In this document: piece by piece, positions 11,291 to 61,848 of the stretch
Position numbering within the stretch: position 1 is the stretch's first letter
Layout: each line of letters begins with the position of its first letter
Source: Bacteroidota bacterium
Lineage (GTDB): Bacteria > Bacteroidota > Bacteroidia > UKL13-3
Assembly (NCBI GenBank): GCA_027491085.1
Contig: JAIXWW010000021.1
Span: forward strand, 66,732 to 130,731
Length of the DNA: 64,000 nt
Reading direction: 5' to 3'
Position numbers and translations under genes: made by a program
The notes under the pieces: model-generated
The model's database searches: none
What the model was told of the DNA's origin: nothing
Seen by the model: only the letters and a program-made list of their open reading frames with translations

Positions 11291-11385
11291 TAAGTTCAAG
11301 TTTTTGACTAATGCCTAAACGAAAAATCGTTAATGGAAAAGATTTTTGCTAACCATGGAAGATGCCTCCGGCATGACTGGGCGAG

Positions 11386-11815
11386 AATAAGCAATGGACA
11401 ATAAGCAATAAGCAATGGGCAATTAGTAATTAGCAATGTAATATCAGCAAAAGATCAATGGCCGTTCTCCCGAAAGCTTTCGGGATTAGCCAACGGAAAA
11501 AGTCAATAAGCAATAGGCAAGTGGGAAATGAGAATTAGGAATTGAGCAATAGCGAACAACAAACATTGAATAATTTCAGTGAGATTGCTTCGTGCCTCGC
11601 AATGACGAACAACAAACAAGCAACTCGTAACTCGTAACAATCAACATGGAACATCGAACAACGAACAACGAACAACGAGCAACGAACAACGAACAAACCA
11701 TCCAACAATATAACAATTCAACAATTCAACAATTAACCAGTTAACCAATTAACCCCACAACAACGAATATCGAATATCGAACATCGAACAACGATCAACG
11801 AACACCGAACATCGG
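11386..11815. repeat. Mosaic of period-7/8 simple-sequence blocks
   Basis: Runs include aagcaat/gggcaat/tagcaat, (cgaacaa)n, (caacaatt)3 and cgaatat/cgaacat. Embedded in them are the palindrome cccgaaagctttcggg and the gattgcttcgtgcctcgcaatgac element. The block lies directly upstream of recG. Confidence 0.85.
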
Positions 11816-48928: not shown

Positions 48929-48936
48929 GTTTTGGC

Positions 48937-50529
48937 TTAATCAATTACAAACTTTTGGGTTACTTCAGTTTGATTGGTTTTTATCTTTATAAAATAAATG
49001 CCAGCTTCAAAACCCTTTATATCAATGGTGTTTTCATATTGCGAAGTATTATAAACTTGTTTGCCACTTAGGGTAAAAATACCAATATTGGTAATTTGCT
49101 TTGAGTCAATATCAGTTAAGCCAATGTATAAATTTTCATTAGCAGGATTAGGGTAAACGACCATTTTATCGGAAAAATTTACTGGTTTAATACCAACTGT
49201 ATTGGGCACTGTGCAGATAGTTCCTTTGTAAGTATTGGTAGTTTTTACTCCTGAAGCATAAAAGTGAAAAGTATAATTTCCAGCACTTGTCCAACTGTAT
49301 TCTACCGAATCAGTTTTGCCATTTAAGGTATAGGTTAAAGTATAACCATTATTCGTTGTATTGGCTTTACATCCTGTTATCACTGCTCCTTTTAAAGGTG
49401 TTCCTGCTGGTCTAATTGGTTTGGCTGAGGCTTGTGGTATTATTTGTAAAGTAGTGTCTTCCGTTACTTGTCCTACCATATTTCCAATCATGTAAGGTGC
49501 AGTTGCTGTTCCATGGTAATGGTAAAGTCCGTTTGTTCCTTCGTGTCCATGATTGGCATCTAAAGTTTTCATGGCTGAACCATCAGGCTCTAACGAACCA
49601 TAAACGGCATATCCATCTAGTGCAAATGCAATAGGTAAAATATCGCTTGTTTTGGTATCTAAAAATAAAGGCGCAGTATGGTAATGGTAATCATCTGCTC
49701 TGCCGCAATGTCCTCCAAATTCATCTAATTGTCCATCTAAAAAAGCATCAACTCCTGTGTTGGTATAAGGATTAAATATAGCAATTCCATTGGCTGCTAC
49801 TGCAATGGCTCCACGTAAAAAATGCTGCTGATTTACCGGTACTGGCGAGGCTGCTTTAATAGGATTTAATGGAATGCTCCAAGCATTGGAACCTATATAA
49901 CATTGTGGAATAGGAAATTGTTGTTGCCAACCTGTTATGCCTTTCATCATTTCATGTTCAGGAATACCAATTGATTCCACATAAAAATAATTGGCATCCC
50001 AACGCGTATTTACATTTGGTCTAAATGGATCGAATGCCGATTTTAGGTAAGTAATATCGGTAGATTTTTTCAGTGTTTTACTGGTAAAACTATAAGACAT
50101 TACCAATCCACCCACTAAAACTGTTGGCATTACATAAAGCCATTTCTTTCTTTCAGCATTAAAAAATTGCCATGCAATAAAAATTAACAGGGCAACCATT
50201 AAATATAGTTTTATGGTAAATTGATTGTTGATTGAATTACTAATAACAGGTTTTGCTTTAGCATGCAAAGCATTGATACTTGCTTGTCTTTTTTGAACAA
50301 ATTGTTGGTCATTTAAAGACAAATCATTAAAAGAAAAAGATTTGATATTTCCATCATTATTTTCAATAAAAACAGTATTGTTTTTAAACAAATAAAATGT
50401 TCCATTAATGGTTTGATGAGTGCTTTCAATATTCCATTTTCTTGGAAAAGCCATTTGTTGGTGTGCATCGTGAGCCCTAGTAATTTGGGTTAATATGCAA
50501 ATCAATAATACCATAAAAATCTTTTTCAT
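48937..50529 (-). CDS. YHYH domain protein with T9SS C-terminal domain and two internal hydrophobic segments
   Basis: 530 aa. Motifs are GHCGRADDYHYHTAP and GLYHYHGTA, and the C-terminus is VYPNPANENLYI...GIYFIKIKTNQTEVTQKFVID. The hydrophobic stretches are LYLMVALLIFIAWQFF and WLYVMPTVLVGGLVMSYSF. Confidence 0.7.
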   Translation of the reverse strand: MKKIFMVLLICILTQITRAHDAHQQMAFPRKWNIESTHQTINGTFYLFKNNTVFIENNDGNIKSFSFNDLSLNDQQFVQKRQASINALHAKAKPVISNSINNQFTIKLYLMVALLIFIAWQFFNAERKKWLYVMPTVLVGGLVMSYSFTSKTLKKSTDITYLKSAFDPFRPNVNTRWDANYFYVESIGIPEHEMMKGITGWQQQFPIPQCYIGSNAWSIPLNPIKAASPVPVNQQHFLRGAIAVAANGIAIFNPYTNTGVDAFLDGQLDEFGGHCGRADDYHYHTAPLFLDTKTSDILPIAFALDGYAVYGSLEPDGSAMKTLDANHGHEGTNGLYHYHGTATAPYMIGNMVGQVTEDTTLQIIPQASAKPIRPAGTPLKGAVITGCKANTTNNGYTLTYTLNGKTDSVEYSWTSAGNYTFHFYASGVKTTNTYKGTICTVPNTVGIKPVNFSDKMVVYPNPANENLYIGLTDIDSKQITNIGIFTLSGKQVYNTSQYENTIDIKGFEAGIYFIKIKTNQTEVTQKFVID

Positions 50530-50541
50530 ATTGTTATTTAA

Positions 50542-52254
50542 TTAGCGGTTTATCATTATTTTATTACTGCTTTTTAAGCCATTTTCTCCAATTAATTCAG
50601 TGTAGTATGTTCCATTGGGTAAAAGCATATTGTTATAATCTTTTCCATCCCAAATAATTTGAAACGAACCTTTTAAAACTGCATGGTTATTAATTAAAGT
50701 TTTTACCAACTGACCTTGGTTATTGTAAATGGCTAAATTTACTTTTTGTGTATTAGGTAAAGTAAATTCAATTCTTACTTCATTATTAAATGGATTAGGA
50801 TAAATGAGTTCATCCACATAATTGCTATTCCATAAAACTGGCGAACTTGTACTTAACGAATCGTAGCAATTAATAGCACCAATATAGTAAGTGGCTGAAA
50901 TGTCTTTGTTCTTGCGTGTTCCTGTTTCGTTTTTAGGTAAGTAAGCTCTTATATAATCTATTTTTGCTCCATTGCCATCCACAGTAACTTTTATATGACC
51001 TGAACCGGGTAAAATAATTCCTTCTTTGTATCCATAACTTTTGGCTTGGCCTGTTGAGGTAAAATTAGGATGACTTGGTTGAGGCACTTCTTGATAGAAC
51101 AAACAATTTTTTTCTTGCTTACCAAAAAAATGATCGTGGCCATGAAAGAAAATATTAACCCTATGTTCGGTTAATAAATCTTTGATAGGTTTATACCAAC
51201 CAACTCTGTTGCTTTCAAAACCCCTTGTTCCATCTAAATTATTTCCTCCCCATTCATATAAATTGGCAAACTCTACGCCACCACGCCCGTCTGGGTCGCC
51301 ACCAATTAGTTGATGTGCAAATACAAACTTAAACTTGGAGTTGTTTTTTTCTAAAGTACTTTTTAACCAATCATATTGCACCTTTCCTAAAGTCCATCTC
51401 CAACCATTCAATGAATCGGGCTTTGGACTGGTGTACCAATATGGATCTAAAACAATGAATAAAGCATCGCCCCAAGTCCATGCATAATAATTTTCTCGTT
51501 GACCTACATAAGGATGATTGATGGTATCGCCTGAATAAAATTGATTTGGAGCTGGATTATTAAAATACTTTTTTCTATCCAAAGTTCCCCAAACTGGTAA
51601 ACAATTGGCTGTTTTATTGTTTAACCAACCTGCTTCGCCTTCATGGTTGCCAAGGGCAATGTATAAAGGAACTGAGTGGACAATTTTTTCGTAGTAAGTT
51701 CTTAATAAATTACAACGATACGTTACTGTATCTCGTGGTATAACTTTGCTTGCATTTGCTAATTTATCCGACATCAAAAAATCGCCCAAATCAATCATAA
51801 AATCTGGCTTATCATCCAATTGGTTTTTTAAACATAAGTTGTACAATGCAGTATCCGTTTGTTCATCTAAATGTGGGTCGGCTTGCACGATAAATGAAAA
51901 GCTATTGTTTTTACTTCTTTGTGTTTGAAAAGTAAATTCAGGTCGGTATATAATGTTGGAACTGCCCGGCTTTCTGTAACAAATTCTATAATAATATTGG
52001 GTGTTTGCTTGCAAATTGGTCAATACAATTTCGGAAGGTTCGTTTGCTGCAAAAGTTTGCCAATTGCTTTGCTTATCAAAGGTATTGCTGCTAAGGCTGT
52101 ATTGCACACTTACCTCTACCAAAGAATCAAAAAATAATTGTATGGTAATTTCTTTATCGGTTGGTCGGCCTAATAATTCGGCATGAACCAAGTTTTGCGA
52201 TTGACTGCTAAAACCAATGCTAACAAATAAAAGTAGGTATAAAATGTATTTCAT
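50542..52254 (-). CDS. Secreted metallophosphoesterase (purple-acid-phosphatase-like N-terminal beta-sandwich) with T9SS C-terminal domain
   Basis: 570 aa. Motifs are QADPH, DLGD, GNHE and FFHGHDHFF, and the C-terminus is YPNPFNNEVRIEF...GTYYTELIGENG. Confidence 0.75.
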   Translation of the reverse strand: MKYILYLLLFVSIGFSSQSQNLVHAELLGRPTDKEITIQLFFDSLVEVSVQYSLSSNTFDKQSNWQTFAANEPSEIVLTNLQANTQYYYRICYRKPGSSNIIYRPEFTFQTQRSKNNSFSFIVQADPHLDEQTDTALYNLCLKNQLDDKPDFMIDLGDFLMSDKLANASKVIPRDTVTYRCNLLRTYYEKIVHSVPLYIALGNHEGEAGWLNNKTANCLPVWGTLDRKKYFNNPAPNQFYSGDTINHPYVGQRENYYAWTWGDALFIVLDPYWYTSPKPDSLNGWRWTLGKVQYDWLKSTLEKNNSKFKFVFAHQLIGGDPDGRGGVEFANLYEWGGNNLDGTRGFESNRVGWYKPIKDLLTEHRVNIFFHGHDHFFGKQEKNCLFYQEVPQPSHPNFTSTGQAKSYGYKEGIILPGSGHIKVTVDGNGAKIDYIRAYLPKNETGTRKNKDISATYYIGAINCYDSLSTSSPVLWNSNYVDELIYPNPFNNEVRIEFTLPNTQKVNLAIYNNQGQLVKTLINNHAVLKGSFQIIWDGKDYNNMLLPNGTYYTELIGENGLKSSNKIMINR

Positions 52255-52257
52255 GGC

Positions 52258-53919
52258 TTAATGATTTACAATTATTTTTTTGTTAAACTCTATGGAAGCT
52301 GATTTTACCAAAACCATATACATACCATTTGGCAAGCTGCTTATATCAATAGTTTTATTTGTAGTTTGCAATACTTGTTGCCCAATTAAATTATAGATGC
52401 TTATTTCATATGCTTCACTTAAATTATTTGAAAGTAAATACAATTCATTGTTGGCAGGATTAGGAAATAGTTTTACTATAGGTTTTTCAATCGTTTCTTT
52501 TATGTCAGTATTGTCACTTTTTTTACCAATGGTATAAGTAAAACCAATCTCTCCATTTTTATGAATACCCAATGTATCGGCAGGCAAATATGCCTTTACA
52601 TAATCTACTTTTATGTTTTCGGGCGATACAGTTACACGGATATGTCCTGTGCCATCAACCGTATCTGATACATAAGAATCTGCATTGGCCAACATGCCTA
52701 TTTCATAAGTAGAATCTGCTGCCATTGGAACTGCTTGATAGGTTACGCTATCTAATGTTTCGTGTGCAAACACATGGTCGTGACCTTGAAAAAATATGTT
52801 TACTTTATTATCAATAAATAAGTTGTGAATTGGTTTTGCCCATCCCGGACGATTGTTTGCAAATGTGTTTGGTCCATTTAATTTATTGCGGCCTCCCCAT
52901 TCGTATAATTGGGCATTGGTAATACCTCCTCGGCCTTGCCCACGAACATGGTGTGCAAACACAAATTTGTATTTGGCTGTACTGGTTTCTAAGGTAGTTT
53001 TTAACCAATTGTATTGGGGTAAACCAAGGCTCCAATTCCAACCTTGTGGTTTATCGGAAGTATCGCATTGGTCTCTGTAAACATCTAACACCACAAAAAG
53101 CGCATCGCCCCAAGTCCAAGCATAATAGTTTTCAGGGTTACCTATTCCGTATTGTTCAACATCGGTATTGCCACTGTAAAATGAATTTGGAAAAGGATTT
53201 GGATAATAATATTTACGCCATTGTGTTGCCCAAACTGTAAGGTTATTAGGTGGGGTTTTGGTTAAATAAAAATCGTTTTCACCTTCATGATTTCCCAAGC
53301 AAACATAAAAAGGAACAGAATGGCAAATGCTGCCTAAAAAAGGTCTGTAATCAGCATGGAGTGCATCTAATTCCGGAGAAGTAATGGTATAAGGATTGTG
53401 GTCATCGCCAAAAATATCTCCAAGCGAAAGCATAAAATCGGGTTTGTCCTTAGCTTGGTTATTTAAAGTTACTTGGTACATGCTGCGAACACCTTTTTTA
53501 TCGTATAAATGTTCATCGGCCTCTATGGTAAAAGTAAAAGTGCTGCCTTTAGCGCGTTGGGTATAAAATGAATATTCAGTACTATTAATAAAAGTACTTG
53601 CCGATGTGGCTTTGTATTTTACCCTATAAAAATACTGCGTATTTTCTGTTAGGTTTGTTAAATCAATTTCATCGGGCTTATTGGCGGTTGCAGTGTAATT
53701 GGAGCTAGTTTGGGTATAAACTCCTTTTTGTGTTCCGTATTCAAAAAAGTAATCAGTATTTTGGTTAAACATGATGCTAGCCGTAACAGTCTTATCAGTT
53801 GGTCTGCCCAAAATAATATTGAATGTTTGGGCATGTAACCAAGTAATGTTGGTTAAACATAAAACAAGCAAGCCTAATTTAATTGAGGCTGGTGAATAAG
53901 TAAATTTTTTTAAACGCAT
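52258..53919 (-). CDS. Secreted metallophosphoesterase, tandem paralog of 50542..52254, with T9SS C-terminal domain
   Basis: 553 aa. Motifs are EADEH, SLGD, GNHE, KYKFVFAHH and FFQGHDHVF, and the C-terminus is FPNPANNELYLL...GMYMVLVKSASIEFNKKIIVNH. Confidence 0.75.
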   Translation of the reverse strand: MRLKKFTYSPASIKLGLLVLCLTNITWLHAQTFNIILGRPTDKTVTASIMFNQNTDYFFEYGTQKGVYTQTSSNYTATANKPDEIDLTNLTENTQYFYRVKYKATSASTFINSTEYSFYTQRAKGSTFTFTIEADEHLYDKKGVRSMYQVTLNNQAKDKPDFMLSLGDIFGDDHNPYTITSPELDALHADYRPFLGSICHSVPFYVCLGNHEGENDFYLTKTPPNNLTVWATQWRKYYYPNPFPNSFYSGNTDVEQYGIGNPENYYAWTWGDALFVVLDVYRDQCDTSDKPQGWNWSLGLPQYNWLKTTLETSTAKYKFVFAHHVRGQGRGGITNAQLYEWGGRNKLNGPNTFANNRPGWAKPIHNLFIDNKVNIFFQGHDHVFAHETLDSVTYQAVPMAADSTYEIGMLANADSYVSDTVDGTGHIRVTVSPENIKVDYVKAYLPADTLGIHKNGEIGFTYTIGKKSDNTDIKETIEKPIVKLFPNPANNELYLLSNNLSEAYEISIYNLIGQQVLQTTNKTIDISSLPNGMYMVLVKSASIEFNKKIIVNH

Positions 53920-54167
53920 TTTAGATAGAATATAAGTTTGCTAGATTCATAGAAAATAAAAAGGTTTAAAGCTAATAGGTTAAAAGGTGGTTAAACTTTT
54001 ACCGAACCTAAATTATAAATTTTTATACTTAAATAACTACCTCAAAAATGAGCAAATGGAACCTTAAACATGTTATAGTTTTAGTGTTAAATGTTGTAAT
54101 TTTTAGATTAGTTGTATTCGTTATTAAAGAATTAACGGAATATTGATTTTAAAGAAATAGCTCAAAT

Positions 54168-54215
54168 TATTCCTATAATTTTCCTTTATTTGAAATAAGA
54201 AAGAGTGGGTGGTGG
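54168..54215 (+). repeat. Array repeat copy 1 (3' part only)
   Basis: tattcctataattttcctttatttgaaataagaaagagtgggtggtgg, ending 30 nt before the ATG at 54245. Confidence 0.85.
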
Positions 54216-54244
54216 GGAAGTAAACACAGATAAAAATATTAAAC

Positions 54245-54598
54245 ATGAATTATTCAATATTAAATCAGTATGGAATAACTTTCCAAAAACAAGCTAATGG
54301 CAATATTAAAATTATTGCTAACTCTAAGATATTAGATAATTTTATGTTTATGTTTTGTCGTGACAAACAAAAATTAGAGAAATTTATTCTGATACTCAGC
54401 CAAGTTTTAAACAATGGATTTAACTCAATATCTGAACAAGATAAATATTGGGATATAGAAATTGGTCTTCAAGTTTATACTGGCATAATTCATAATAACA
54501 CAGAATTTGACTTGTATTTTGAAAATGAAGAAAATGAAACTTATCCTCTTAGTGATATAAGAGAAATATTTTCCTCATTATTTGAATTTATCAATTAA
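54245..54598 (+). CDS. Small hypothetical protein (cassette 1; immunity-like by context)
   Basis: 117 aa, acidic, with no signal peptide. It follows array repeat copy 1. Confidence 0.55.
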   Translation: MNYSILNQYGITFQKQANGNIKIIANSKILDNFMFMFCRDKQKLEKFILILSQVLNNGFNSISEQDKYWDIEIGLQVYTGIIHNNTEFDLYFENEENETYPLSDIREIFSSLFEFIN

Positions 54599-54646
54599 TT
54601 TAAAATTTTAAAACGATTTCTTTACCCAAAGAGTAATTTACCCTTA

Positions 54647-54723
54647 CCAACCGAATTTGTATCATTCAAACATTTTATTCCTATAATTTTCCTTTATTTG
54701 AAATAGGAAAGAATGGGTGGTGG
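54647..54723 (+). repeat. Array repeat copy 2 (full length, about 77 bp)
   Basis: ccaaccgaatttgtatcattcaaacattttattcctataattttcctttatttgaaataggaaagaatgggtggtgg. Confidence 0.9.
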
Positions 54724-54757
54724 CAGCAATAAAAAAGCCATTTGATTATAAAGTAAA

Positions 54758-55252
54758 ATGACAAGAACGAAATATTTTGAATTAGCAGAAGCAAACGAAT
54801 TAGTATTAGAAATAGAGTTTGGCACCTATGTATTAATGATGTATTATATCGCCCAAATTGATTATCAAAAAGCCTTAAAACTTTTTCATGCAACTATTTC
54901 AGAATGGAAATATCGTGTAGAATACGAATTGGATGAAGGTATGTATGATAGTGAAAACTATACCTGCCATTTTGTACCATCTGAAATTCAGGAATCAATT
55001 GCATTTATAGATAATCAAGTGATACCAGCTTTACAAAATGAAACTTATGAAGATGTATTAGTAAAATATGGAGGCAAAGCCAATTTTGAAAATATTTATA
55101 ATGATAACAATACATTTTTAATTTTTTTAGGAGCTTATGATGAGGTTTATGAAGATAGTAAATATGGCATGTGGGGTAGATTTGAAAAATTAAGAAATGT
55201 CTTTCAAGAATCATTAAACAGAAATATACCATTTAAAACTTGGGTATGGTAA
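54758..55252 (+). CDS. Small hypothetical protein (cassette 2; immunity-like by context)
   Basis: 164 aa, acidic and aromatic-rich, with no signal peptide. It follows array repeat copy 2. Confidence 0.55.
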   Translation: MTRTKYFELAEANELVLEIEFGTYVLMMYYIAQIDYQKALKLFHATISEWKYRVEYELDEGMYDSENYTCHFVPSEIQESIAFIDNQVIPALQNETYEDVLVKYGGKANFENIYNDNNTFLIFLGAYDEVYEDSKYGMWGRFEKLRNVFQESLNRNIPFKTWVW

Positions 55253-55273
55253 ATTCCCCTCGCTTCCTATTCT

Positions 55274-55334
55274 CACCAACCGAATTTGTATCATTCAAAC
55301 ATTTTATTCCTATAATTTTCCTTTATTTGAAATA
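55274..55334 (+). repeat. Array repeat copy 3 (5' part; ends at gaaata)
   Basis: caccaaccgaatttgtatcattcaaacattttattcctataattttcctttatttgaaata, 6 nt before the ATG at 55341. Confidence 0.9.
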
Positions 55335-55340
55335 AAAAAA

Positions 55341-55807
55341 ATGGAAATAGAATATTTAAAAACTTTGAGAGATAATCCTGTAGATTTTGGTGTGACCATG
55401 AATTATACTAATAGAGGTATTCCCATAACAGAAATAGAACAATTAGAACAAACTTGGAACAATGGCAATCCATTTCCAAAGGCATTACGAGAACTGCTTT
55501 TTTAGCAGGAGAATATTGCTATGTGTTTAATTATGGAGTTTATGATACGCAGCAAGAATTACAAGAATTTATGAGAGAAGACATGGCTGATAATGGAAAA
55601 AGCATTACACGGCCATTTTATGTTATGGATACATGGAATGCAGATCAATTTAGCTTTATATATTTAGATGAAGGTGATAACCCCTATATTTATGATGCTA
55701 ATTCATATAAGAATGGTTCAAATTGGTTTTATAAGACAAATTATACCATAAAGAGTCTAGCAGAAAGCAGAATAGAAAGTGTTAAAAGAGGAGAAAATCC
55801 TTATTAA
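55341..55807 (+). pseudogene. SMI1/KNR4 (SUKH-1) family immunity-type protein, interrupted by a frameshift in a T6 run
   Basis: Frame A (55341..55505) reads MEIEYLKTLRDNPVDFGVTMNYTNRGIPITEIEQLEQTWNNGNPFPKALRELLF-stop. Frame B (tracked ORF 55454..55807) continues LAGEYCYVFNYG... One extra T in the run at 55498-55503, or a -1 slip, joins them as ...ALRELLFLAGEYCYVF. That gives the SMI1/KNR4 pattern (I..lE...g..lP..l...l...g). Confidence 0.6.
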
Positions 55808-55825
55808 AAGCAGCAGATATTTGCC

Positions 55826-55952
55826 CTCGGTTGGTATCCTCACCAATCGAATAAGGTGCGGTGAGGACACCGACCTTGGACAAATTTGTATCATTCAAAC
55901 ATTTTATTCCTATAATTTTCCTTTATTTGAAATAAGAAAGAGTGGATTGGTG
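55826..55952 (+). repeat. Array repeat copy 4, with a roughly 33-bp hairpin-forming insertion and no following ORF
   Basis: cctcaccaatcgaa, then taaggtgcggtgaggacaccgaccttggacaaa, then tttgtatcattcaaacattttattcctataattttcctttatttgaaataagaaagagtggattggtg. Confidence 0.8.
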
Positions 55953-56088
55953 AACGAACCTGAAAATTATTTTTATAGCAGTTCAAATATTTTTAGCCCT
56001 TTAAAAGTAATACCGTTTTGAAATAGGAGTTAATCAGCTGGAGGCTTTTTAATACGCTCACTCGCAAGATGCGAGCGAGCGCTGGGGC

Positions 56089-57285
56089 TTATTTTTTGAG
56101 TAATTTGTAATTATAATAACCTTTGTTTGTCTTAATTACTATAAAGTACAAGCCAGAATTAAGTTCGGTTGTAATTGGTAAATTTAATGTTTCGTTCGTA
56201 TTGATATTTATATTATTCCATTGATGAATTTCTTTTCCGGTAATATCAGTTAAAGCAATAGCAGCCTTATCCAAATTTTGATTGGCTGTAATTAGTATTT
56301 CGTTTTCAAAAGGGTTGTTTATTTTAAACAGATTACTTTCATTCAACTCATTAATATTAGTAATTGTGCCAACCGTTTTGCGCACCAAAACCAAATTATC
56401 TAAAATCAAATTACTGCTCCATATAAAGTTTGCTTTGCTCCAAGCAGTGCTAGCAAAATTAGTATAGGCAGCCTGATTGGTAACTTGTGCAGCAGTATAT
56501 AAATATGCATTTGGCCAAGCAGCATCGTTAAAATTTTTACTATACCAATCAGAAGGCATATCGTAATGGATGCCATAACAATTGGCATTACAGGTAGGAG
56601 TGGTGGTAGCAGTTGAGGTGGAATGTGTTCCATCTGTAAGTTCTTTTACCGTATTTAAATCTTGAATAGGGGCAATGTAAAAAGTTTGTGCTTTCCATGT
56701 TGCATCTGTTATGGTGCCATCGCTAAATTGGGCAATAAAACCTCCATCACCAGGATGATACAAACTACTGGCACTTTGAATTTCAGAACCTAATCCTATA
56801 TTTTCTTCCCAATCAACCAATTTAACAGCTATGGTATATGGTTTTGACACTTTAAACTTTACTACCGATGAATTAAAAGGTGTAAAAGGAACTGCATCTA
56901 CTCCAACCAAAACGCCATTGATGTATAACTCAAAATAATTATCTGCAAAAATATAACCTGTAATTAATTCGCCTTGCTCGTCAATTACCGTGGTTGGAAC
57001 ATTGCTTAAATCGGCATTATTCAATGAGGTTGGTGTAATATTATTGCATGAATTATGCAAGTCGGAAAGTTTGGTAGCTGTTAAAAAATTATTTTCAGCA
57101 GGTACAATCCATGTCTTGTTATCTGTTGATTTGATTGTACCAATTGGTGTAACATGGTTGCTTGAACATGCAGGCATTAAATTGGCTGTGGTTGTTGTGC
57201 CAAGGCCTTGTGTTACCGAACCTGATGTTTGGCTAAAGCTTAATTGGCAAATAAACATGCCTACGATGAAGTAAATTATTTTCAT
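56089..57285 (-). CDS. Hypothetical secreted protein with T9SS C-terminal domain
   Basis: 398 aa with a signal peptide (CQLSFSQ). The C-terminus is INNPFENEILI...GLYFIVIKTNKGYYNYKLLKK. Confidence 0.7.
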   Translation of the reverse strand: MKIIYFIVGMFICQLSFSQTSGSVTQGLGTTTTANLMPACSSNHVTPIGTIKSTDNKTWIVPAENNFLTATKLSDLHNSCNNITPTSLNNADLSNVPTTVIDEQGELITGYIFADNYFELYINGVLVGVDAVPFTPFNSSVVKFKVSKPYTIAVKLVDWEENIGLGSEIQSASSLYHPGDGGFIAQFSDGTITDATWKAQTFYIAPIQDLNTVKELTDGTHSTSTATTTPTCNANCYGIHYDMPSDWYSKNFNDAAWPNAYLYTAAQVTNQAAYTNFASTAWSKANFIWSSNLILDNLVLVRKTVGTITNINELNESNLFKINNPFENEILITANQNLDKAAIALTDITGKEIHQWNNININTNETLNLPITTELNSGLYFIVIKTNKGYYNYKLLKK

Positions 57286-57297
57286 GGTTTGTAAAGT

Positions 57298-57897
57298 TTA
57301 TTTTTTTCTAAAGGCTATTTGACAGCCAATTGATTTGGTTTCTTTGGTTAATATTGGCTTTCCATTTAATAGTGCATTTACTGCATCTGCTACGTAAGTT
57401 TCTGTTACTTTATTTGACTCCATGCCATTATCGTCAATTGCTCCACTATACTTAACTACCCAACTATTGTTTTCCTTCCAAATTACAAAAGCGTGAGGTG
57501 TTTTTTGCGCTTTAAAATTTTTAGCAACAGTTTGCATTTCATCAAATAAATAAGGGAAATTGAATTGTTCCTCTTTTGCTTTTGTAACCATATTTGGGTA
57601 AGTATCTTCTTCGTACATCATGGTATCGGTAGAACTGATGGCAATTAATGGAACCCCCAAAGGTTTGAATTTGTTGTTTAATTCATTTAATCGAGGAGGG
57701 TATAATTTTGCAAATGGACAATGGTTACAAGTAAACACAATAATAAAACCTTTGGCATCTTTATAATTGGCTAATGAAACTTTATTGCCATCAACATTCA
57801 TTAATGAAAAGTCGTTAACTAGCTGTTTTTGGGGTGCAAATGCTGTATTAATAAAAACAAATGCGAAAATCAATAATATAAATTTTAAGCTTTTCAT
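57298..57897 (-). CDS. Thioredoxin-fold (redoxin/AhpC-TSA-like) protein
   Basis: 199 aa with a signal peptide and the CxxC motif FTCNHCPF. The start overlaps the upstream stop as ATGA at 57894-57897. Confidence 0.75.
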   Translation of the reverse strand: MKSLKFILLIFAFVFINTAFAPQKQLVNDFSLMNVDGNKVSLANYKDAKGFIIVFTCNHCPFAKLYPPRLNELNNKFKPLGVPLIAISSTDTMMYEEDTYPNMVTKAKEEQFNFPYLFDEMQTVAKNFKAQKTPHAFVIWKENNSWVVKYSGAIDDNGMESNKVTETYVADAVNALLNGKPILTKETKSIGCQIAFRKK

Positions 57898-58382
57898 CTA
57901 ATTAGTTTAATTAGTCTAATTAGTTTAATTAGTTTAATTAGTTTAGGGTATGTTAAACTGGTTACAATAAATTTTCTTTTCTTATTTTTCTTTACTATTA
58001 AAGTAGCTGGAATAGCGCCACTCCAATTATTATCTATTTCATTTATCCAAACATTTCCGTTGGGTTCGTCTAATAAGTAAATAGGAGGTAATTGGTATTT
58101 ATTTATGATAGGTTCAAGATTTTTTTTTGCATCGGTTTTAAAATCTACACTTACCAAAAGTATTTTCGTTTTACTGTTTTGTGAGCTATCTATCAATTGC
58201 AAAAAAGCAGGAATCTCCTTTAAACATGGTGCACACCACGAAGCAAAAAAGTTTACCACATAAGTAGTATCCGATTGATTAAAAACGCGCTGCTTCAGTT
58301 CATTGAATTTGATAACTTGGATATGTTGGGCACTGCAATTAATTGAAATAACTAATAATATACAGAAAATGTTGAATCGCAT
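57894..58382 (-). CDS. TlpA-like thiol:disulfide oxidoreductase with a repeat-encoded C-terminal tail
   Basis: 162 aa with a signal peptide and FFASWCAPCLKEIP. The last 17 aa or so (KLIKLIKLIRLIKLIR) are encoded by the 9-bp tandem repeat. Confidence 0.75.
   Translation of the reverse strand: MRFNIFCILLVISINCSAQHIQVIKFNELKQRVFNQSDTTYVVNFFASWCAPCLKEIPAFLQLIDSSQNSKTKILLVSVDFKTDAKKNLEPIINKYQLPPIYLLDEPNGNVWINEIDNNWSGAIPATLIVKKNKKRKFIVTSLTYPKLIKLIKLIRLIKLIR
57898..57945. repeat. 9-bp tandem repeat (attagttta), 5 units plus a partial one
   Basis: cta attagttta attagtcta attagttta attagttta attagttta. It is in-frame in the 3' end of the TlpA-like gene and abuts the next gene's ATG. Confidence 0.9.
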
Positions 58383-58396
58383 TGTTTTTATTAAAT

Positions 58397-58432
58397 AAAA
58401 ACCTCCATTATTCTTTTTAATGGAGGTTTTTT
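58397..58432. terminator. Rho-independent terminator (bidirectional form) after the YHYH gene
   Basis: aaaacctccatta-ttcttt-ttaatggaggtttttt. Confidence 0.8.
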
Positions 58433-58437
58433 AATAT

Positions 58438-59793
58438 CTATTTAGCTACTACAATTTTTTTGGTGACAACATTGCCATTGTCTATAATTTTTACCAAATA
58501 AGTGCCTTCATATAAAGTTCTGGTATCAAAATAGGTAATGGTGCTTCCTTGCAATATTTGTGATGTTTGCAATAATTTTCCTGTTAAATCGTACAACTCC
58601 AAAGTAATATTATTGGCAGTTAAATGGTTTAATTGAATAGCTACTACATCGCTGGTAGGGTTTGGATATACATTAATTTTATCTGCGTTAATCACACTTT
58701 TTATACTTGTGGTGCTTGGAGTGTAAGTTGTTACAGTTTCGGTAATGCTAGTTACTTTAGCCGCTGTTTTTACACCATAAAAAGTGGGTCCTACTACGTA
58801 TGGATAAGCTGAATTCCAATTTTCATCTACAGTAGCAAAGTAACAATAAATACCATTTGGATATTCTGGTGTTTTACAAAAGCGACCATTGTGTTCATCT
58901 AAATAATCTTGAGACGAAGCAGTAGGAACATTGTATTGATAATCCTCTCTAAAATAACCTAAAGGATAAGTAGTATTTACCGCAGGGCCAGCAGTTACTG
59001 TTGCTCCACCTGCATAAGTGGTTCTAGTAGTTATATCACGTAAGGTGTAACTTGATTTCATGCGAACAATATCTCCAGTTCCATCTGCATTTTTATAAGC
59101 ATAAGCACCATAAATTGGAAAACCATCGTAAGCAAACCCAATTAATGGCGAATGTTTGGTACTATCGATGGCGTATAATCCATCAGAGGCATATAATGTA
59201 CAAACTGTTGAAATTACTTTTAAGTCTAAACTAAAAGCACTTGGGTTTTGGTGGTGATGGTAATTACCCATGGCAGGATGTGCTTTAGCGCAATCAAAAC
59301 CTACACGCTCGGCCACAACTGCATCGCGATTCCATACATTATCGCCCACACCGCCCGAAGGCAAACCTTTAAGTGCTTGGCTTGCATTGCTCCATGATAC
59401 GCCATCTCTATAATCAAAAAGTGCAACTCCATTAATAAATAAACCAATATTTCCCCCAGTGGTAGCCGTTGGGGTACCTGTATTTTGAGTTGGATTTAAA
59501 GGAAATTTAAAAATGCCATTTTGCGCAGTAGCCAAGGATGGATTTCCATCTTGAAAAGGGCCAGTAATGTAAGTAGGAATACTATTGGTAGCCACATAAA
59601 CCGAGGTGGCAGAGTATTTTACACTCTGGCAGTTTGCCAATGCAGCATCAACTATTGGAGTTGAGTTTCCTTTTACATAATGCCTGCCAGTAACAGTATT
59701 GTTTTGAAGCCAATTTAAAATAATTGGATTGGTTTGTGCATTCAGCATCATACCCGCTAGCATGAAGCTAAATAAAGTGATGTGTTTTTTCAT
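58438..59793 (-). CDS. YHYH domain protein with T9SS C-terminal domain
   Basis: 451 aa with a signal peptide. Motifs are GNYHHHQNP and EHNGRFCKTPEYPNGIYCYF, and the C-terminus is VYPNPTSDVVAIQL...GTYLVKIIDNGNVVTKKIVVAK. Confidence 0.7.
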   Translation of the reverse strand: MKKHITLFSFMLAGMMLNAQTNPIILNWLQNNTVTGRHYVKGNSTPIVDAALANCQSVKYSATSVYVATNSIPTYITGPFQDGNPSLATAQNGIFKFPLNPTQNTGTPTATTGGNIGLFINGVALFDYRDGVSWSNASQALKGLPSGGVGDNVWNRDAVVAERVGFDCAKAHPAMGNYHHHQNPSAFSLDLKVISTVCTLYASDGLYAIDSTKHSPLIGFAYDGFPIYGAYAYKNADGTGDIVRMKSSYTLRDITTRTTYAGGATVTAGPAVNTTYPLGYFREDYQYNVPTASSQDYLDEHNGRFCKTPEYPNGIYCYFATVDENWNSAYPYVVGPTFYGVKTAAKVTSITETVTTYTPSTTSIKSVINADKINVYPNPTSDVVAIQLNHLTANNITLELYDLTGKLLQTSQILQGSTITYFDTRTLYEGTYLVKIIDNGNVVTKKIVVAK

Positions 59794-59810
59794 ATTTTTT
59801 AGTTGATAAT

Positions 59811-59893
59811 AGTGAGAAGTGAAATGTTAAATGTGAGATGTTAAATTGAAAATTGCAATTCAACAATCCAACAATTTGACAATCCAACAATTC
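59811..59893. repeat. Period-7/8 simple-sequence block
   Basis: gtgagaagtgaaatgttaaatgtgagatgttaaat...ttcaacaatccaacaatttgacaatccaacaattc, directly upstream of the YHYH gene start on the minus strand. Confidence 0.75.
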
Positions 59894-59895
59894 AT

Positions 59896-61611
59896 TTACT
59901 CCTTTATAAATTTTTTTACAGTAACTGCTTTGGTTTTATCATCGGTTAGCTGCACAAAATAGGTTCCTGCACTTAAACTCGAAATATCAATTCCATTGCC
60001 TAATTCTGGTCTAGGTAACATCAATACAGCTTTACCTACCAAGTTTAAAATGGAAATATAATAAACTTTGGTTTCATGGTTGTTAAATGAAATATAAAGT
60101 TTTTCGTTTGCAGGATTTGGATACAATGAAAAATCAGATTTATTAGTTGATTTAATGCCACTTGTTTTATCTGTAACAATAAATTGACCCATCATGCCTT
60201 CATCTTCGTGCAAAGCAATGTGACAATGGTACATAAAAGGGTGCAACGGATCGGCATAATTATCAAACTTGGCTATGAATTTAACCGTTGATTTGCTTGG
60301 CACAAAAACCACATCTTTAAAACCCGCTTGCGCAGCAACTGGGGCAACTCCATCAACCGATAAAATATTAAACTCCACATTATGGATATGGAATGGATGT
60401 CCAAAATTGGAGGTACTGGTAATTTGCCAAATTTCAGTATTGTTCAATGGTACATCATAGTTATTATAATTATAATCAAATAATTTATGGTTAATAACAA
60501 ATGCTGCACCTGTTACACCAACAATATTGGTATCGCTTATGGTTAAAGCTCGGGTAATGCTTGCATTTGCAGCCGGTATTGTTGAAACAGTTCTTAAAAA
60601 TGTAGGTATATTTAAAATAGGATTGCTTGTTTTAGCACCAACATTAATATGCAAAACATTAAAATCTTTACGTGCTAAATAGTTTACAAAAGGACCATTA
60701 GGAAAAAAATCTCCACCTGCTACATTCTGTGCTAATGTTGAATTGTATGCTTTCAAATCAATTGATTTACCCAAATCGTTTGAACAATCTACTAAAATTT
60801 CAATGCGTTCTCCCAAATGTAAAAGGTATTTTGTAACAGTAACTGGTGCCGTTAACAGTCCACCATCAGAAGCAATTACTTGAAACGACCTACCATCGCT
60901 AAATCCAAGATTGTAAGAACGCTCCAATCCACCATTTAAAATTCTAAATCTTACCACTTGTGCAGGTACTGTGTATTGTGCTCGCAAAGTCATGTTGGTC
61001 ATCATGCTATCGCCATAAGGTACTACCACAAATTGGTTAGAGGTGCTTATATCTCTATCAGAAAGCACCAACGGAATATCATCCACACCATAAGTTCTTG
61101 GCAAAGCTAGTTTAGATTCTACTTCGTCTCTAACAATCATAAAACCACCTAAACCTTTGGTCATTTGTTCTTCCGCCATTTCATGTAAATGCGGATGATA
61201 CCAATAAGTTCCTGCATCGTTTTTTACCTCCCAATAAGGTTGCCATAAAGTGCCGGGAGGAATAATTTGATGCGGACCTCCATCCATTACAGCTGGTAAA
61301 TGCATGCCATGCCAATGAACGGTAGTTGAATCGTTTAAATTATTTTTTACATTCATGTGAACCACATCACCTTTGTTAATAAACATGGTTGGTCCCCAAA
61401 ATTTTCCGTTGATACCTCCAGTAATGGTTTGATTTCCGGTATTTACTATTTGAGCAAATGTATCTTTTATATTTAAGTTAAAAGTAGTTCCTGAAAGGGT
61501 ATCAGGTATCCATAGGTTATTGTATGTTTGGCTATATAAATTGCTTGTTAAAAGCATTAAAAATGCAACAACACCTTTTTTAAATAGATTATTTGTGAAC
61601 ATGTTTCTCAT
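59896..61611 (-). CDS. Multicopper oxidase with T9SS C-terminal domain
   Basis: Copper-site motifs are TVHWHGMHLP, YWYHPHLH, HPFHIHNVEF and YHCHIALHEDEGMMGQF. The C-terminus is LYPNPANEKLYI...GTYFVQLTDDKTKAVTVKKFIKE. The start is uncertain: 61647, 61611 or 61602. Confidence 0.85.
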   Translation of the reverse strand: MRNMFTNNLFKKGVVAFLMLLTSNLYSQTYNNLWIPDTLSGTTFNLNIKDTFAQIVNTGNQTITGGINGKFWGPTMFINKGDVVHMNVKNNLNDSTTVHWHGMHLPAVMDGGPHQIIPPGTLWQPYWEVKNDAGTYWYHPHLHEMAEEQMTKGLGGFMIVRDEVESKLALPRTYGVDDIPLVLSDRDISTSNQFVVVPYGDSMMTNMTLRAQYTVPAQVVRFRILNGGLERSYNLGFSDGRSFQVIASDGGLLTAPVTVTKYLLHLGERIEILVDCSNDLGKSIDLKAYNSTLAQNVAGGDFFPNGPFVNYLARKDFNVLHINVGAKTSNPILNIPTFLRTVSTIPAANASITRALTISDTNIVGVTGAAFVINHKLFDYNYNNYDVPLNNTEIWQITSTSNFGHPFHIHNVEFNILSVDGVAPVAAQAGFKDVVFVPSKSTVKFIAKFDNYADPLHPFMYHCHIALHEDEGMMGQFIVTDKTSGIKSTNKSDFSLYPNPANEKLYISFNNHETKVYYISILNLVGKAVLMLPRPELGNGIDISSLSAGTYFVQLTDDKTKAVTVKKFIKE

Positions 61612-61848
61612 AAATTTATTTTTTTGTATAATACAAAATAGGTTCAATTAAAATAGAAAACTGTTACGGTATTTTTTAAATATTTTATAAAATTAATTAC
61701 AAATGTTATAAAATTATTTTTTGGCATTTAATTATTATTTGAAAAGTAACAATTAAATAAAACTATCAATAGCAATTGTATTTTTTATGTTTTAACCATT
61801 TTCCAATTTCTAAATAAAGTGAATTAGCTTGTTCAAATCTGATTTGAT

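Follow-up and report, generated by a model that had tools for sequence, protein, structure and literature searches.

Predicted orphan immunity genes in a Bacteroidota chromosomal array, preceded by a repeat module that appears to derive from the two ends of a RAYT unit

Among gut Bacteroidales, orphan immunity arrays are known to shape competition. Polyimmunity loci of polymorphic toxin systems, reportedly described by Zhang, de Souza, Anantharaman, Iyer and Aravind in 2012, are said to be frequent in Bacteroidetes, and we know of neither a common upstream module nor a link to RAYT genes or REP sequences in that description. The cassettes of integrons are mostly promoterless, and REP/BIME elements often lie between the genes of operons. 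REP/REPIN-RAYT systems and BIMEs were reportedly treated by Nunvar in 2010, by Bertels and Rainey in 2011 and by Ton-Hoang in 2012. PATEs and the MITE-like derivatives of IS200/IS605 are non-autonomous elements that have lost the gene of a Y1-transposase unit and retain its two ends. The rAID arrays are defined and were found by their XerD-family tyrosine recombinase (bioRxiv 10.1101/471110; PMC12247911), and the orphan immunity arrays of the Vibrio cholerae T6SS grow in place behind the active effector, with displacement via effector homology (PMC5361080).

The window, that is, the whole 64-kb stretch of Bacteroidota DNA that was analysed, contains at 54167-55952 on the + strand four copies of one element in the same orientation. 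The array and the features beside it are as follows (loci used for comparison carry L numbers and homologous proteins carry P numbers below).

54167..54244, + strand, module copy 1: left-truncated; invariant core, G-rich decayed REP tail and A-rich leader running to the ATG of ORF1
54245..54598, + strand, ORF1: 117 aa, predicted orphan immunity protein
54641..54757, + strand, module copy 2: complete, with the AT-rich core between two decayed REPs (left and right), then the leader
54758..55252, + strand, ORF2: 164 aa, predicted orphan immunity protein
55256..55340, + strand, module copy 3: right-truncated, with the core fused straight to the ATG of ORF3; 50-mer exact
55341..55807, + strand, ORF3: probable SUKH-1 (SMI1/KNR4) family immunity-type gene, split in two frames
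55824..55880, + strand, inverted REP-type palindrome pair (REPIN-like doublet), left of copy 4
55881..55952, + strand, module copy 4: terminal and gene-less; 50-mer exact at 55885
56056..56082, + strand, GC-rich hairpin CGCTCACTCGCA-aga-TGCGAGCGAGCG in the right flank of the array

We consider it likely that this locus is a chromosomal polyimmunity array, in which the modules would act both as expression signals and as recombination substrates. Like the polyimmunity loci, it holds tandem genes from several immunity families, SUKH among them, lies on the chromosome and has no toxin gene beside it; it differs from them by the module and its RAYT/REP link, and by the fact that two of its three families are uncatalogued. 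The V. cholerae arrays (PMC5361080) also carry immunity genes in a row together with 3'-end remnants of displaced effectors, which may be compared with the toxin-tail remnants directly before the immunity gene in L021 and L014. However, the window array has no toxin locus in its vicinity, and a dedicated module stands between one cassette and the next. No toxin, T6SS or recombinase gene was found in the 64-kb window by a Pfam scan of its ORFs, and the flanking genes are T9SS cargo, in agreement with what had been read from the sequence alone on both points.

Several features are shared with rAID-1 (2019, bioRxiv 10.1101/471110; PMC12247911). The array contains at least two short co-oriented genes (~100-300 codons), orphan homologues of toxin-linked immunity genes including SUKH, repetitive conserved intergenic sequences and no adjacent toxin, and its G+C content (24-30%) is lower than that of the flanks (32-39%). 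Nevertheless, it would take a tyrosine recombinase elsewhere in the genome, with the repeat as its recombination site, to make this a true rAID-1- or integron-type array, which we regard as very improbable. A Phage_integrase/XerD-type match in Pfam was absent from the 20 window ORFs of suitable size (150-460 aa), no XerD-family recombinase stands at the head of the array, and no tyrosine recombinase was called in the related loci listed. Among the genes linked to homologous arrays, just one kind is recombinase-like, and it encodes a Y1 HUH enzyme, a RAYT. In addition, the rAID-1 hosts are gut Bacteroidales and the corresponding toxins are those of T6SS GA1-3, whereas the arrays described here come from environmental, unclassified Bacteroidetes MAGs and the matching toxins come from an uncharacterised locus. 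This locus suggests that the strategy of orphan immunity arrays also exists in environmental Bacteroidota, on a different scaffold.

With integrons, the array shares compact single-gene cassettes in one orientation, a repeated separator and a content that varies at a fixed chromosomal site. It differs in that neither intI nor attI is present, no tyrosine recombinase being found in the window, and in that the repeat lies upstream of the gene, like an expression module, instead of forming a 3' attC hairpin. The module has no attC-like hairpin potential (z = -0.6 for copy 2, a partial test in which no dedicated attC model was used), and an attC-like hairpin formed by the module ends was dropped as a candidate because there was no folding signal. 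Since neither a tyrosine recombinase nor attC was found, we do not assign the array to rAID-1 or to the integrons. The sequence-only reading had proposed an acquired immunity array of the Bacteroidales type with integron-like regularity; the orphan immunity genes, the low G+C and the compact cassettes bear this out, but the XerD-family recombinase and the attC-like folding do not appear.

The 31-mer TTATTCCTATAATTTTCCTTTATTTGAAATA occurs exactly at 54167, 54675, 55304 and 55904, in all cases on the + strand, and none of 100 shuffles contained a match by chance. A 50-mer beginning TTTGTATC is identical in copies 2, 3 and 4. The four copies occupy four consecutive intergenic spaces and occur nowhere else in the window. 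Thus, the four repeat copies of 60-77 bp that had been claimed are real and non-random, but the unit is longer, with a true size of ~110-150 nt (~100-150 nt with the shorter copies), extending from ...CCCTCG(G/C)TT... just past the previous stop codon to the next ATG. Copy 2 served as the reference for the repeat family; copy 1 lacks the left half and copy 3 the right G-rich tail. The truncated copy 1 is also found with an identical left flank in the relatives L002 and L003, and the short junction of the copy-3 type precedes an ORF3-family gene in the metagenome contig L020. The fourth copy had been thought to start at 55826, where a separate inverted REP-type palindrome pair lies instead (55826-55880), although the conserved core itself is present from ~55881. 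The description of this copy as an empty slot was right, as no ORF of at least 40 aa starts in the 200 nt downstream of it, and a gene-less terminal module also closes the arrays in L002, L003 and L005.

A repeat confined to this locus would, by the criterion of the sequence-only reading, have counted against the array; the module, however, also occurs in the relatives L001-L005 and L027 and in contig L020. We aligned 24 copies, from the window, four MAG species and one metagenome contig, and conservation was at least 95% across 34 consecutive columns, whereas the flanking genes were just 84-96% identical to those of the relatives, below the conservation of the module core. The near-invariant 34-nt core, TTCCTATAATTTTCCTTTATTTGAAATAAGAAAG, lies ~50-60 nt 5' of most start codons, and the spacing from the core end to the ATG was 51-59 nt in 9 of 12 cassettes. 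The coding sequence is joined to the common module 0-12 nt from its ATG, the left module boundary is constant within a few nucleotides across different cassettes, and the cassettes hold almost nothing beyond coding sequence. Among the metagenome contigs searched, the exact 24-mer core was present in one JGI contig only, and it was absent from the viral contigs.

The module would most likely supply the promoter and the 5' leader of each cassette. The core word TTTATTTG differs at one position from the -7 box of Bacteroidetes, TAnnTTTG; at the usual spacing, the core showed no clear -33 element, and a scan for sigma-70 promoters and terminators gave background-level results that were uninformative. 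Here, we need to consider that the repeat could act at the RNA level, as a structured cis-regulatory leader or as a small RNA common to the genes, since in many cassettes the conserved sequence takes in the 5' leader as far as the ATG. This is the most improbable of the explanations that we weighed: no Rfam family was matched in the array (E up to 1) or in five related loci (E up to 0.1), the module folded no better than shuffled sequence (z = -0.6 for copy 2, and -0.3), and its stretch of highest conservation is AT-rich and lacks structure. With neither structure nor a known family, the riboswitch and small-RNA readings were dropped. When Rfam was run over the whole window, it returned one tRNA only, far from the array, and there was no tRNA near the array. 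The partly complementary ends that had been pointed out in the element proved to be decayed inverted REP palindromes, but copy 2 shows no significant folding.

The three genes announced behind copies 1-3 (117, 164 and, when repaired, about 155 aa) were located at 54245-54598, 54758-55252 and 55341-55807. They are mutually unrelated, and paralogy among them was rejected because no similarity was found between them. ORF1, ORF2 and ORF3 are most likely orphan immunity genes against toxins of other bacteria; for ORF1 and ORF2, this assignment is made because of the gene context, as neither has a catalogued immunity family by sequence or fold. The orphan immunity array that had been proposed was upheld by the SUKH-1 matches in the ORF3 family and by homologues in the immunity slot of toxin loci for all three proteins (72%, 55% and 79% identity for ORF1, ORF2 and ORF3, respectively).

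ORF1 had no match in Pfam or NCBIfam, and its homologues numbered 10 in a search of 5.8 billion proteins and 37 representatives in a search of 1.84 billion proteins. The closest, P0132 (72% identity), lies 3 nt behind a 1082-aa protein whose C-terminal match to EndoU_bacteria is weak and below the Pfam threshold (E 0.0028), and another homologue, P0137, adjoins a full EndoU_bacteria protein of 294 aa. The target of ORF1 is probably an EndoU-type nuclease toxin. Its AlphaFold2 model had a pLDDT of 93.6, and Foldseek against the PDB found no fold match (best E 0.17). ORF2 likewise had no match in Pfam or NCBIfam and just nine homologues in 5.8 billion proteins. The closest, P0125 (55% identity), lies 1 nt behind a 1230-aa protein in the same type of locus and occurs in four Chryseobacterium assemblies, and P0127 sits behind a remnant of the tail of this protein. 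The ORF2 model (pLDDT 81.4) gave no Foldseek match in the PDB better than E 0.17. We suggest ORF1 and ORF2 as two small candidate new immunity families, the former linked to EndoU-type nucleases and having a confident but unmatched fold.

ORF3 probably belongs to the SUKH-1 family, as judged by profile matches of its homologues. The family PF09346 (SMI1_KNR4) was matched by 18 of 36 sampled homologues (best E 7.7e-9), a sample that is 47-80% identical to ORF3 and enriched for proteins with a precomputed match. The SUKH-1 pattern noticed earlier is seen in these homologues, and repaired ORF3 itself had no match to PF09346 at E up to 10; a profile of the ORF3 family found nothing among PDB sequences. 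One nucleotide is missing from the T6 run at 55498-55503, which breaks the frame, and when a seventh T is restored a single ORF3 of 155 aa results, 100% of whose length aligned with more than 100 homologues of 150-160 aa each. In total 220 homologues were found, mostly full length over the repaired junction. The break is either a pseudogene mutation or an assembly error, and because ORF3 is frameshifted at least one cassette may be dead. The closest homologue (79% identity) lies 1-4 nt downstream of a variable large protein. P0001 and P0003 are encoded 4-5 nt behind a ~1090-aa protein with a CxxC tail, whose Toxin-deaminase match is weak and below the Pfam threshold (E 0.025).

Homologues of all three genes were found 1-4 nt behind a variable protein in the loci L006/L007, L010-L013, L017-L019 and L024. 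These loci share one order, namely a ~730-aa protein, a variable protein of ~1,100-1,230 aa, the immunity gene and two giant proteins of more than 2,000 aa. When the loci were compared, the ~730-aa proteins were 37% identical and the giant proteins 31-45%. The variable proteins have a conserved centre (27-33% identical) and a C-terminal end, the last ~190-330 residues, that could not be aligned, and the homologues of each ORF pair with a different toxin C-terminus. One giant protein contains DUF6603. Apart from this name, the toxin locus had no entry in Pfam, NCBIfam or the literature searched, and the literature searched on DUF6603 yielded nothing; the PDB likewise gave no phmmer match to the 731-aa protein or to the two toxin C-termini used as queries. 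Six cassette proteins of L001 and L003 (five against Pfam) had no meaningful match in Pfam/NCBIfam. Related arrays also carry RNase_T and endonuclease V genes. The three cassettes are a lead to an uncharacterised polymorphic-toxin locus of Bacteroidota.

It is improbable that the genes are not immunity genes at all and form an ordinary operon of unrelated small genes invaded by a selfish REP/BIME- or MITE-like element. The general frequency of REP/BIME elements between operon genes would fit such an operon, as would the absence of recognised domains in ORF1 and ORF2 and the RNase_T and endonuclease V genes of related arrays. On the other hand, an invading element should hardly fill four consecutive intergenic spaces in a single orientation and at a regular distance to the ATG without any copy elsewhere in 64 kb, one type of toxin locus has homologues of all three genes in its immunity slot, and the cassettes move with their modules into different neighbourhoods.

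Folding of the REPIN-like doublet (55824-55880) gave two hairpins (dG -14.4 kcal/mol, z = -3.45), and the doublet is the single site of GGTTGGTATCCTCACCAATC in the window. Its palindrome also flanks RAYT genes in L008 and L021, with a 3-mismatch version in L027, and the palindrome family is confined to, or lies beside, arrays and RAYT genes in the DNA examined. Intact short palindromes remain in copy 4 only; those of copies 1-3 are decayed and without significant folding. The 168-aa protein of L008 has a Pfam Y1_Tnp match above threshold and is a RAYT rather than an IS200 transposase (NCBIfam REP_Tyr_transpos, E 4e-20 versus 8e-4). In three lineages (L008/L009, L021/L022 and L027), the first cassette is directly preceded by a RAYT gene in the same orientation, and L027 combines this gene with three modules of the window type (nhmmer E 3.5e-26 to 7.6e-23). 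The sequence-only reading had advised looking elsewhere for a linked recombinase; in these homologous arrays the recombinase-like gene is that of a Y1 HUH RAYT, and no tyrosine recombinase was called in the related loci.

The 24-copy profile matched eight RAYT stop-codon/REP regions (E 7e-6 to 2e-3). By local alignment, the left end of the module resembles the palindrome-bearing sequence upstream of the RAYT gene, and the right end resembles the RAYT stop-codon region with the inverted palindrome downstream, with scores reached by 0 of 1,000 shuffles at either end. These alignments show the module to be a gene-less miniature of the RAYT unit, derived from its two ends. By eye, the central part of the module also seemed plausibly homologous to the 3' coding end of RAYT or to its 5' UTR; nhmmer and local alignment gave this no support, and it was dropped. 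As in REP/REPIN-RAYT systems (PMC5581495; PMC3733652), there are imperfect palindromes of 20-25 nt, singly and as inverted doublets; inverted palindromes flank a single RAYT gene (in L008, L021 and L027, the window having none), and gene-less derivatives are repeated nearby. The differences are that here the palindromes are array-confined in the DNA examined and not dispersed extragenically, the sole intact palindrome of the window lying inside the array, and that they belong to a longer module with an invariant AT-rich core that alternates with immunity genes. The module also resembles PATEs and MITE-like elements in consisting of the two ends of a Y1-transposase unit without its gene, although the parent enzyme is a RAYT and not IS200, and the copies are ordered with a gene behind each. 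In the literature searched, there was no paper joining RAYT or REPIN elements with immunity arrays. The repeat offers a link between two open problems, cassette acquisition by immunity arrays and the purpose of RAYTs.

These results raise the tentative and rather unlikely alternative that the RAYT (HUH/Y1) is a dedicated array recombinase, doing with single-stranded DNA what the integrase does in integrons. Cleavage would take place at the REP palindromes of the modules, and the enzyme would either transfer module-gene-module units or attach new DNA beside a module; the window array would be non-autonomous, served in trans, or have lost the enzyme. The position of the gene, co-oriented and directly 5' of the first cassette in three lineages, fits this proposal, as do the construction of the module from both ends of the RAYT unit, the restriction of the palindromes to arrays and RAYT genes, the left boundary constant to a few nucleotides, the nearly pure coding content of the cassettes, and the RAYT fragments and RAYT-end copies that recur inside the L008 array. 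However, a RAYT gene is absent from the window and from the fetched parts of L001-L005, the palindromes of copies 1-3 are decayed, and the varied fragment lengths in L008 resemble unequal or illegitimate recombination more than precise cleavage. The chimeric module of L002 is as expected from simple homologous recombination, and movement of genes by RAYTs is not known (PMC5581495). We hold it equally doubtful that RAYT and REP palindromes were recruited as recombination machinery for immunity cassettes, an integron-like capture through ssDNA for interbacterial defence, in which module-gene-module units would move as composite cassettes flanked by REPINs and insert beside existing modules. If true, this would give a concrete role to RAYTs, whose function is debated, and would point to an undescribed polymorphic toxin delivery system in Bacteroidota as the target of the cassettes.

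For the polyimmunity array that we favour, comparison of the relatives is informative. In the same neighbourhood they carry from 0 to at least 8 cassettes: cassettes are missing from L002, whose flank is 96% identical and which has one chimeric module; a single cassette is present in L003, at least six are in L001, and there are more in L004/L005. The single module of L002 looks like a recombination product. Common cassettes adjoin different neighbours across relatives; the orthologous ORF2 cassettes of L001, L004 and L027, for example, have neighbours that differ among these loci and from those in the window. We propose that each gene came from a polymorphic-toxin locus carried by other Bacteroidota, where it occupied the immunity slot, and that the genes would protect the cell against neighbours delivering those toxins. 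The near-identical modules would then serve as substrates for cassette loss, duplication and reshuffling by homologous recombination, as the relatives support. Such recombination accounts for the loss and shuffling of cassettes, not for the birth of new compact ones. Because of the toxin-tail remnants in other genomes, it is suggested that larger fragments were captured and then trimmed.

Finally, the GC-rich hairpin at 56056..56082 may be what is left of a lost cassette, or it may be a terminator, and its membership of the array is uncertain. The window sequence 56029-56082 matches L001 3326-3379 at 89%, and this part of L001 lies within the array, between a module and a 168-aa paralogue of ORF2.

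The repeat element (module) that the sequence-only reading had reported in four copies was confirmed at 54168-55952, with all copies on one strand, and the ORFs claimed behind the first three copies (117, 164 and, when repaired, about 155 aa) were present. Each module together with its coding sequence is called a cassette here. The array is set within minus-strand genes with T9SS C-terminal sorting domains, in agreement with the T9SS cargo region proposed earlier. The features of the window are as follows.

54167, 54675, 55304 and 55904, same strand: exact matches to the 31-nt core TTATTCCTATAATTTTCCTTTATTTGAAATA (copies 1-4)
54245-54598: ORF1, 117 aa, behind copy 1
54758-55252: ORF2, 164 aa, behind copy 2
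55341-55807: ORF3, behind copy 3, in two frames split at a T6 run (55498-55503)
55824-55880: two inverted short palindromes, an extra 57 nt ahead of copy 4
47750-61647, minus strand: T9SS-tailed genes (two paralogous metallophosphoesterases, Lcl_C, YHYH and a 398-aa protein)

Exact match search of the window revealed a 50-mer identical in copies 2-4, and neither the 31-nt core nor the 50-mer occurred again in the 64-kb window or in any of 100 shuffles. Copy 1 is without the left half and copy 3 without the G-rich right tail. No ORF of at least 40 codons starts within 200 nt downstream of copy 4, which bears out the gene-less fourth repeat. The complementary ends described for the element are the two palindromes, which are decayed in copies 1-3, and copy 2 folded no better than shuffled sequences; the intact doublet beside copy 4 gave z = -3.45. 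ORFs reading through this doublet of REPs, the short palindromes of a REP-associated tyrosine transposase (RAYT, a Y1 HUH enzyme), at 55779-56021 (+) and at 2569-2820 of locus L025, contain the peptide ...SVG(I/V)LTNRIRCGE...; some assemblies annotate them, probably wrongly, as genes.

The three array genes are mutually unrelated, and none of them directly matched Pfam or NCBIfam. With one T added, ORF3 encodes 155 aa, and over 100 homologues of 150-160 aa align along its full length, indicating that the T7 repair is right; the frame break at T6 is either a true 1-nt deletion (a pseudogene) or an assembly error. Several of its 220 homologues are named SMI1/KNR4 by NCBI, and Pfam SMI1_KNR4 (SUKH-1) was matched by 18 of the 36 aligned homologues (best E 7.7e-9), a sample enriched for precomputed matches. 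These homologues point to ORF3 as a divergent member of the SUKH-1 superfamily, and the earlier SUKH guess holds through them. The ORF1 and ORF2 families are very small, with 10 and 9 homologues, respectively, among 5.8 billion clustered proteins, and 37 ORF1 representatives among 1.84 billion proteins. Structure prediction, as proposed earlier, gave confident AlphaFold2 models (pLDDT 93.6 for ORF1 and 81.4 for ORF2), but neither model matched a solved structure.

Gene context provides the strongest evidence for an immunity role. P0132, the closest ORF1 homologue outside this lineage (72% identity), is encoded 3 nt past a 1082-aa protein (L006, L007); the ORF2 homologue P0125 (55%) lies 1 nt past a 1230-aa protein in four Chryseobacterium assemblies (L010-L013); and the ORF3 homologues P0001 (79%) and P0003 (71%) lie 4-5 nt past a protein of about 1090 aa (L017-L019, L024). 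Judged by gene order and similarity, these are loci of one type.

L006, 4558-20354: toxin-type locus
L010-L013, 4115-20492: toxin-type locus
L017-L019 and L024: toxin-type locus

The gene order is a protein of about 730 aa, a protein of about 1,080-1,230 aa with a variable C-terminus, the immunity gene, a giant protein of 2,141-2,614 aa and a second giant of more than 2,000 aa. Between loci, the upstream proteins of about 730 aa share 37% identity and the 2141-2614-aa giants 31-45%, with DUF6603 in one. For the middle proteins, identity is 27-33% across the central 300-550 residues, while the final 190-330 residues or so are unalignable. Polymorphic toxins and their immunity proteins are recognized by a protein whose body is conserved and whose C-terminus varies, closely coupled to a small gene that varies along with the C-terminus, and by sequence the middle protein and the small gene carry this signature. 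Weak matches were obtained to EndoU_bacteria (E 0.0028, residues 999-1080 of the L006 protein) and to Toxin-deaminase (E 0.025, residues 1014-1059 of the L017 protein, with a CxxC motif in the same region). Independently of L006, a clear EndoU_bacteria domain is present in a 294-aa protein whose gene adjoins that of P0137, a further ORF1 homologue. The conserved parts of the locus had no match in Pfam, NCBIfam or PDB, and no paper mentioning DUF6603 was found in the literature searched; the array leads to a conserved and apparently undescribed polymorphic toxin locus of Bacteroidota, including Chryseobacterium. The last 40-60 toxin codons persist ahead of an orphan immunity gene in L021 (ORF3 family) and L014 (ORF2 family), indicating that transfer ran from toxin locus to orphan. 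The window contains no toxin locus of this type and no gene above 960 aa. At the level of homology, all three array genes are shown to be relatives of immunity-slot genes of one locus type, and the orphan immunity array proposed earlier is essentially right.

When a 24-nt core was scanned against one genome per species, the element was found in four MAGs labelled Bacteroidetes, one of these labelled Bifidobacterium. Exact cores numbered seven in 6.4 kb of L001, two in L003, one in L002 and four in L004/L005 (a single contig), and looser matching gained extra copies. The JGI metagenomes held one contig only with the element, and viral contigs had none; the search suggested earlier thus placed the repeat beyond the window. 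L001 (CAZGVO010000011.1) is titled 'uncultured Bifidobacterium sp.', yet it is clearly from Bacteroidota because its T9SS-tailed YHYH protein is 84% identical (DNA) to window 58291-59810, and its bin is probably mislabelled. When 24 copies were aligned, conservation was 95% or higher across a block of 34 adjacent columns (TTCCTATAATTTTCCTTTATTTGAAATAAGAAAG), whereas flanking protein genes among these genomes are only 84-96% identical, suggesting that this stretch is either under constraint or being homogenised. Every truncated copy retains it. The distance from core to ATG is 51-59 nt in 9 of 12 cassettes, and in many cassettes similarity continues past the core through the G-rich stretch and ...CACGGACAAA... 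into an A-rich leader.

Comparison with related arrays revealed the origin of the module. First, L008, an array with ORF1- and ORF3-family genes, is headed by a 168-aa gene with an HUH motif (MPNHIHLL), whose product scored above threshold for Pfam Y1_Tnp and matched the NCBIfam REP-associated tyrosine transposase model with E 4e-20 (IS200, 8e-4). The palindrome GGTTGGTGTCCTCACCAAYC precedes this RAYT gene and the inverse palindrome follows it, and the order of RAYT, inverted palindrome and first cassette recurs in L021/L022 and L027. Second, in L027 a RAYT gene 80% identical to that of L008 is followed by genes for a 122-aa protein and an ORF2 homologue (88% identity), together with three complete modules of the window type (nhmmer E 3.5e-26 to 7.6e-23), and L027 is the link between RAYT-headed arrays and window-type modules. 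Third, the 24-copy profile gave eight significant matches in L008, L009, L021 and L022 (E 7e-6 to 2e-3); seven are the RAYT stop codon, of a full gene or a fragment, with the downstream palindrome, and the eighth adjoins a RAYT C-terminal fragment in L008. Finally, local alignment tested against 1,000 shuffles matched the module's left end (TGCCCTCGGTTGGTATCCTCACCAAYCGAAT) to sequence upstream of the RAYT gene and the right end (TTTATTTGAAATAAGAAAGAGTGGNTTGGTG...ACCACGGAYAAA) to the RAYT stop region and following sequence, each with a score reached by 0 of 1,000 shuffles. Since both ends match RAYT flanks, the alignments identify the module as a RAYT-unit miniature with the gene removed, a claim that covers the two ends, on either side of a middle stretch of about 40 nt. 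Other transposable elements give rise to non-autonomous derivatives by the same route.

Upstream of both L008 RAYT copies there are 113-nt tandem repeats of the REP palindrome and the first 25 or so RAYT codons (7685-8364 and 11143-11482); the second copy (11302-11806) is frameshifted, and other L008 cassettes are preceded by RAYT C-terminal fragments. A second gene-less copy of the RAYT 3' end and palindrome (L021, 1895-2020) sits just ahead of a housekeeping gene of the Mrp/ParA type and is not part of any array.

Array content varies among relatives within the same neighbourhood, formed by a 553-aa T9SS phosphoesterase gene and/or the YHYH T9SS gene, or by a small membrane-protein gene. L002, whose flank is 96% identical to the window, has one module and zero cassettes, and this module joins a copy 1-type left side to a terminal-copy-type right side, the outcome predicted if the first module of an array recombined with the last. 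In L003, an empty first module is followed by a single cassette and then by a terminal module; at least six cassettes are present in L001, where the array continues past the contig end; and L004/L005 has more cassettes, including a five-gene block without modules. The ORF2 cassette has different neighbours each time in the window, L001, L004 and L027, and L020 carries a cassette of the ORF3 type whose junction is shortened as in the window. A gene-less terminal module closes the arrays in the window, L002, L003 and L005. On its right side the array is bordered by different sequence in the window, in L001 and in L002/L003/L005, indicating that the array coincides with a rearrangement breakpoint. 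Based on these comparisons, which give good support, we suggest that homologous recombination between modules causes cassette loss and reshuffling.

Each module would also carry the promoter and leader of its cassette, a suggestion of moderate confidence. The position ahead of genes suits this role, and the core contains a one-mismatch Bacteroidetes -7 box (TAnnTTTG); a box of this type occurs at -34 to -80 in roughly 8 of the 49 genes of the window. At the usual spacing, no clear -33 box was found. Cassettes are very compact, with toxin-locus similarity beginning 4-12 nt ahead of the ATG and 3-45 nt between stop codon and next module. New cassettes might begin as larger captured fragments, of the kind kept in L021 and L014, that are then trimmed as selection favours expression. 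Alternatively, RAYT might cut and join DNA at the palindromes, given that arrays of three lineages begin with this enzyme's gene and that, in the DNA examined, its palindromes were seen only at arrays; we consider this rather improbable, as the window has no RAYT gene and mostly decayed palindromes, and the internal RAYT fragments of L008 resemble sloppy recombination products.

In function, the locus is a polyimmunity or orphan immunity array, the counterpart of the gut Bacteroidales rAID-1 arrays, whose defining features are a tyrosine recombinase of the XerD type, short orphan immunity genes in one orientation, conserved motifs between the genes and low G+C (bioRxiv 10.1101/471110; PMC12247911). 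The window array shares the co-oriented short orphan immunity genes, conserved intergenic repeats and low G+C (24-30% vs 32-39% in the surroundings), but it is without the XerD-type enzyme. Because a tyrosine recombinase was searched for among 20 window ORFs of 150-460 aa and not found, we rejected rAID-1 membership and do not file the array there; the lack of a nearby recombinase and toxin had been noted correctly. The likeness to immunity arrays stood. The array is not an integron either, with no intI in the window and, by folding of copy 2, no attC-like structure. The nearest description is a hybrid between two known things, orphan immunity arrays and the REP/RAYT element family; no paper linking the two was found in the literature searched. 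The novelty lies in what the repeat is and in its tie to an HUH transposase; the finding of the sequence-only reading is real and its interpretation essentially right.

Several minor features accompany these arrays. Element X, absent from the window, is a non-coding insert of about 200 nt that occupies the place of a gene, with a full module on one side and a truncated one on the other; four short GC hairpins with GTA/TAC loops lie in it, Rfam gave no match, and about the first 120 nt are also found ahead of a lipoprotein gene. Related arrays include, among their cassettes, short genes for endonuclease V (Endonuclease_5) and RNase_T-type exonucleases. Endonuclease V acts on deaminated DNA, and such cassettes would, speculatively, fit defence against deaminase toxins.

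L001 6040-6300, L004 6500-6765 and L004 930-1200, minus strand: element X
L004 2563-3687 and 4526-5023, L008 12663-13211, L023 5623-6129: endonuclease V or RNase_T-type genes

L023, from another lineage, is a nine-gene co-oriented small-gene array with an ORF2 homologue, and its intergenic palindrome CCCCTGTTCACGC.GTCCGATAGCTATCGGACC.CGTGAACGG (2207-2250, 2798-2841, 3382-3425) directly follows stop codons and is unlike that of the window; the L003 REP doublet contains a related insert, GCCGATAGCTATCGGC. In the window, a 9-nt tandem repeat (TAATTAGTT, about 5 copies, 57899-57945) lies where two minus-strand genes overlap and encodes the KLIKLIRLIKLIR tail of a 162-aa thioredoxin-like protein.
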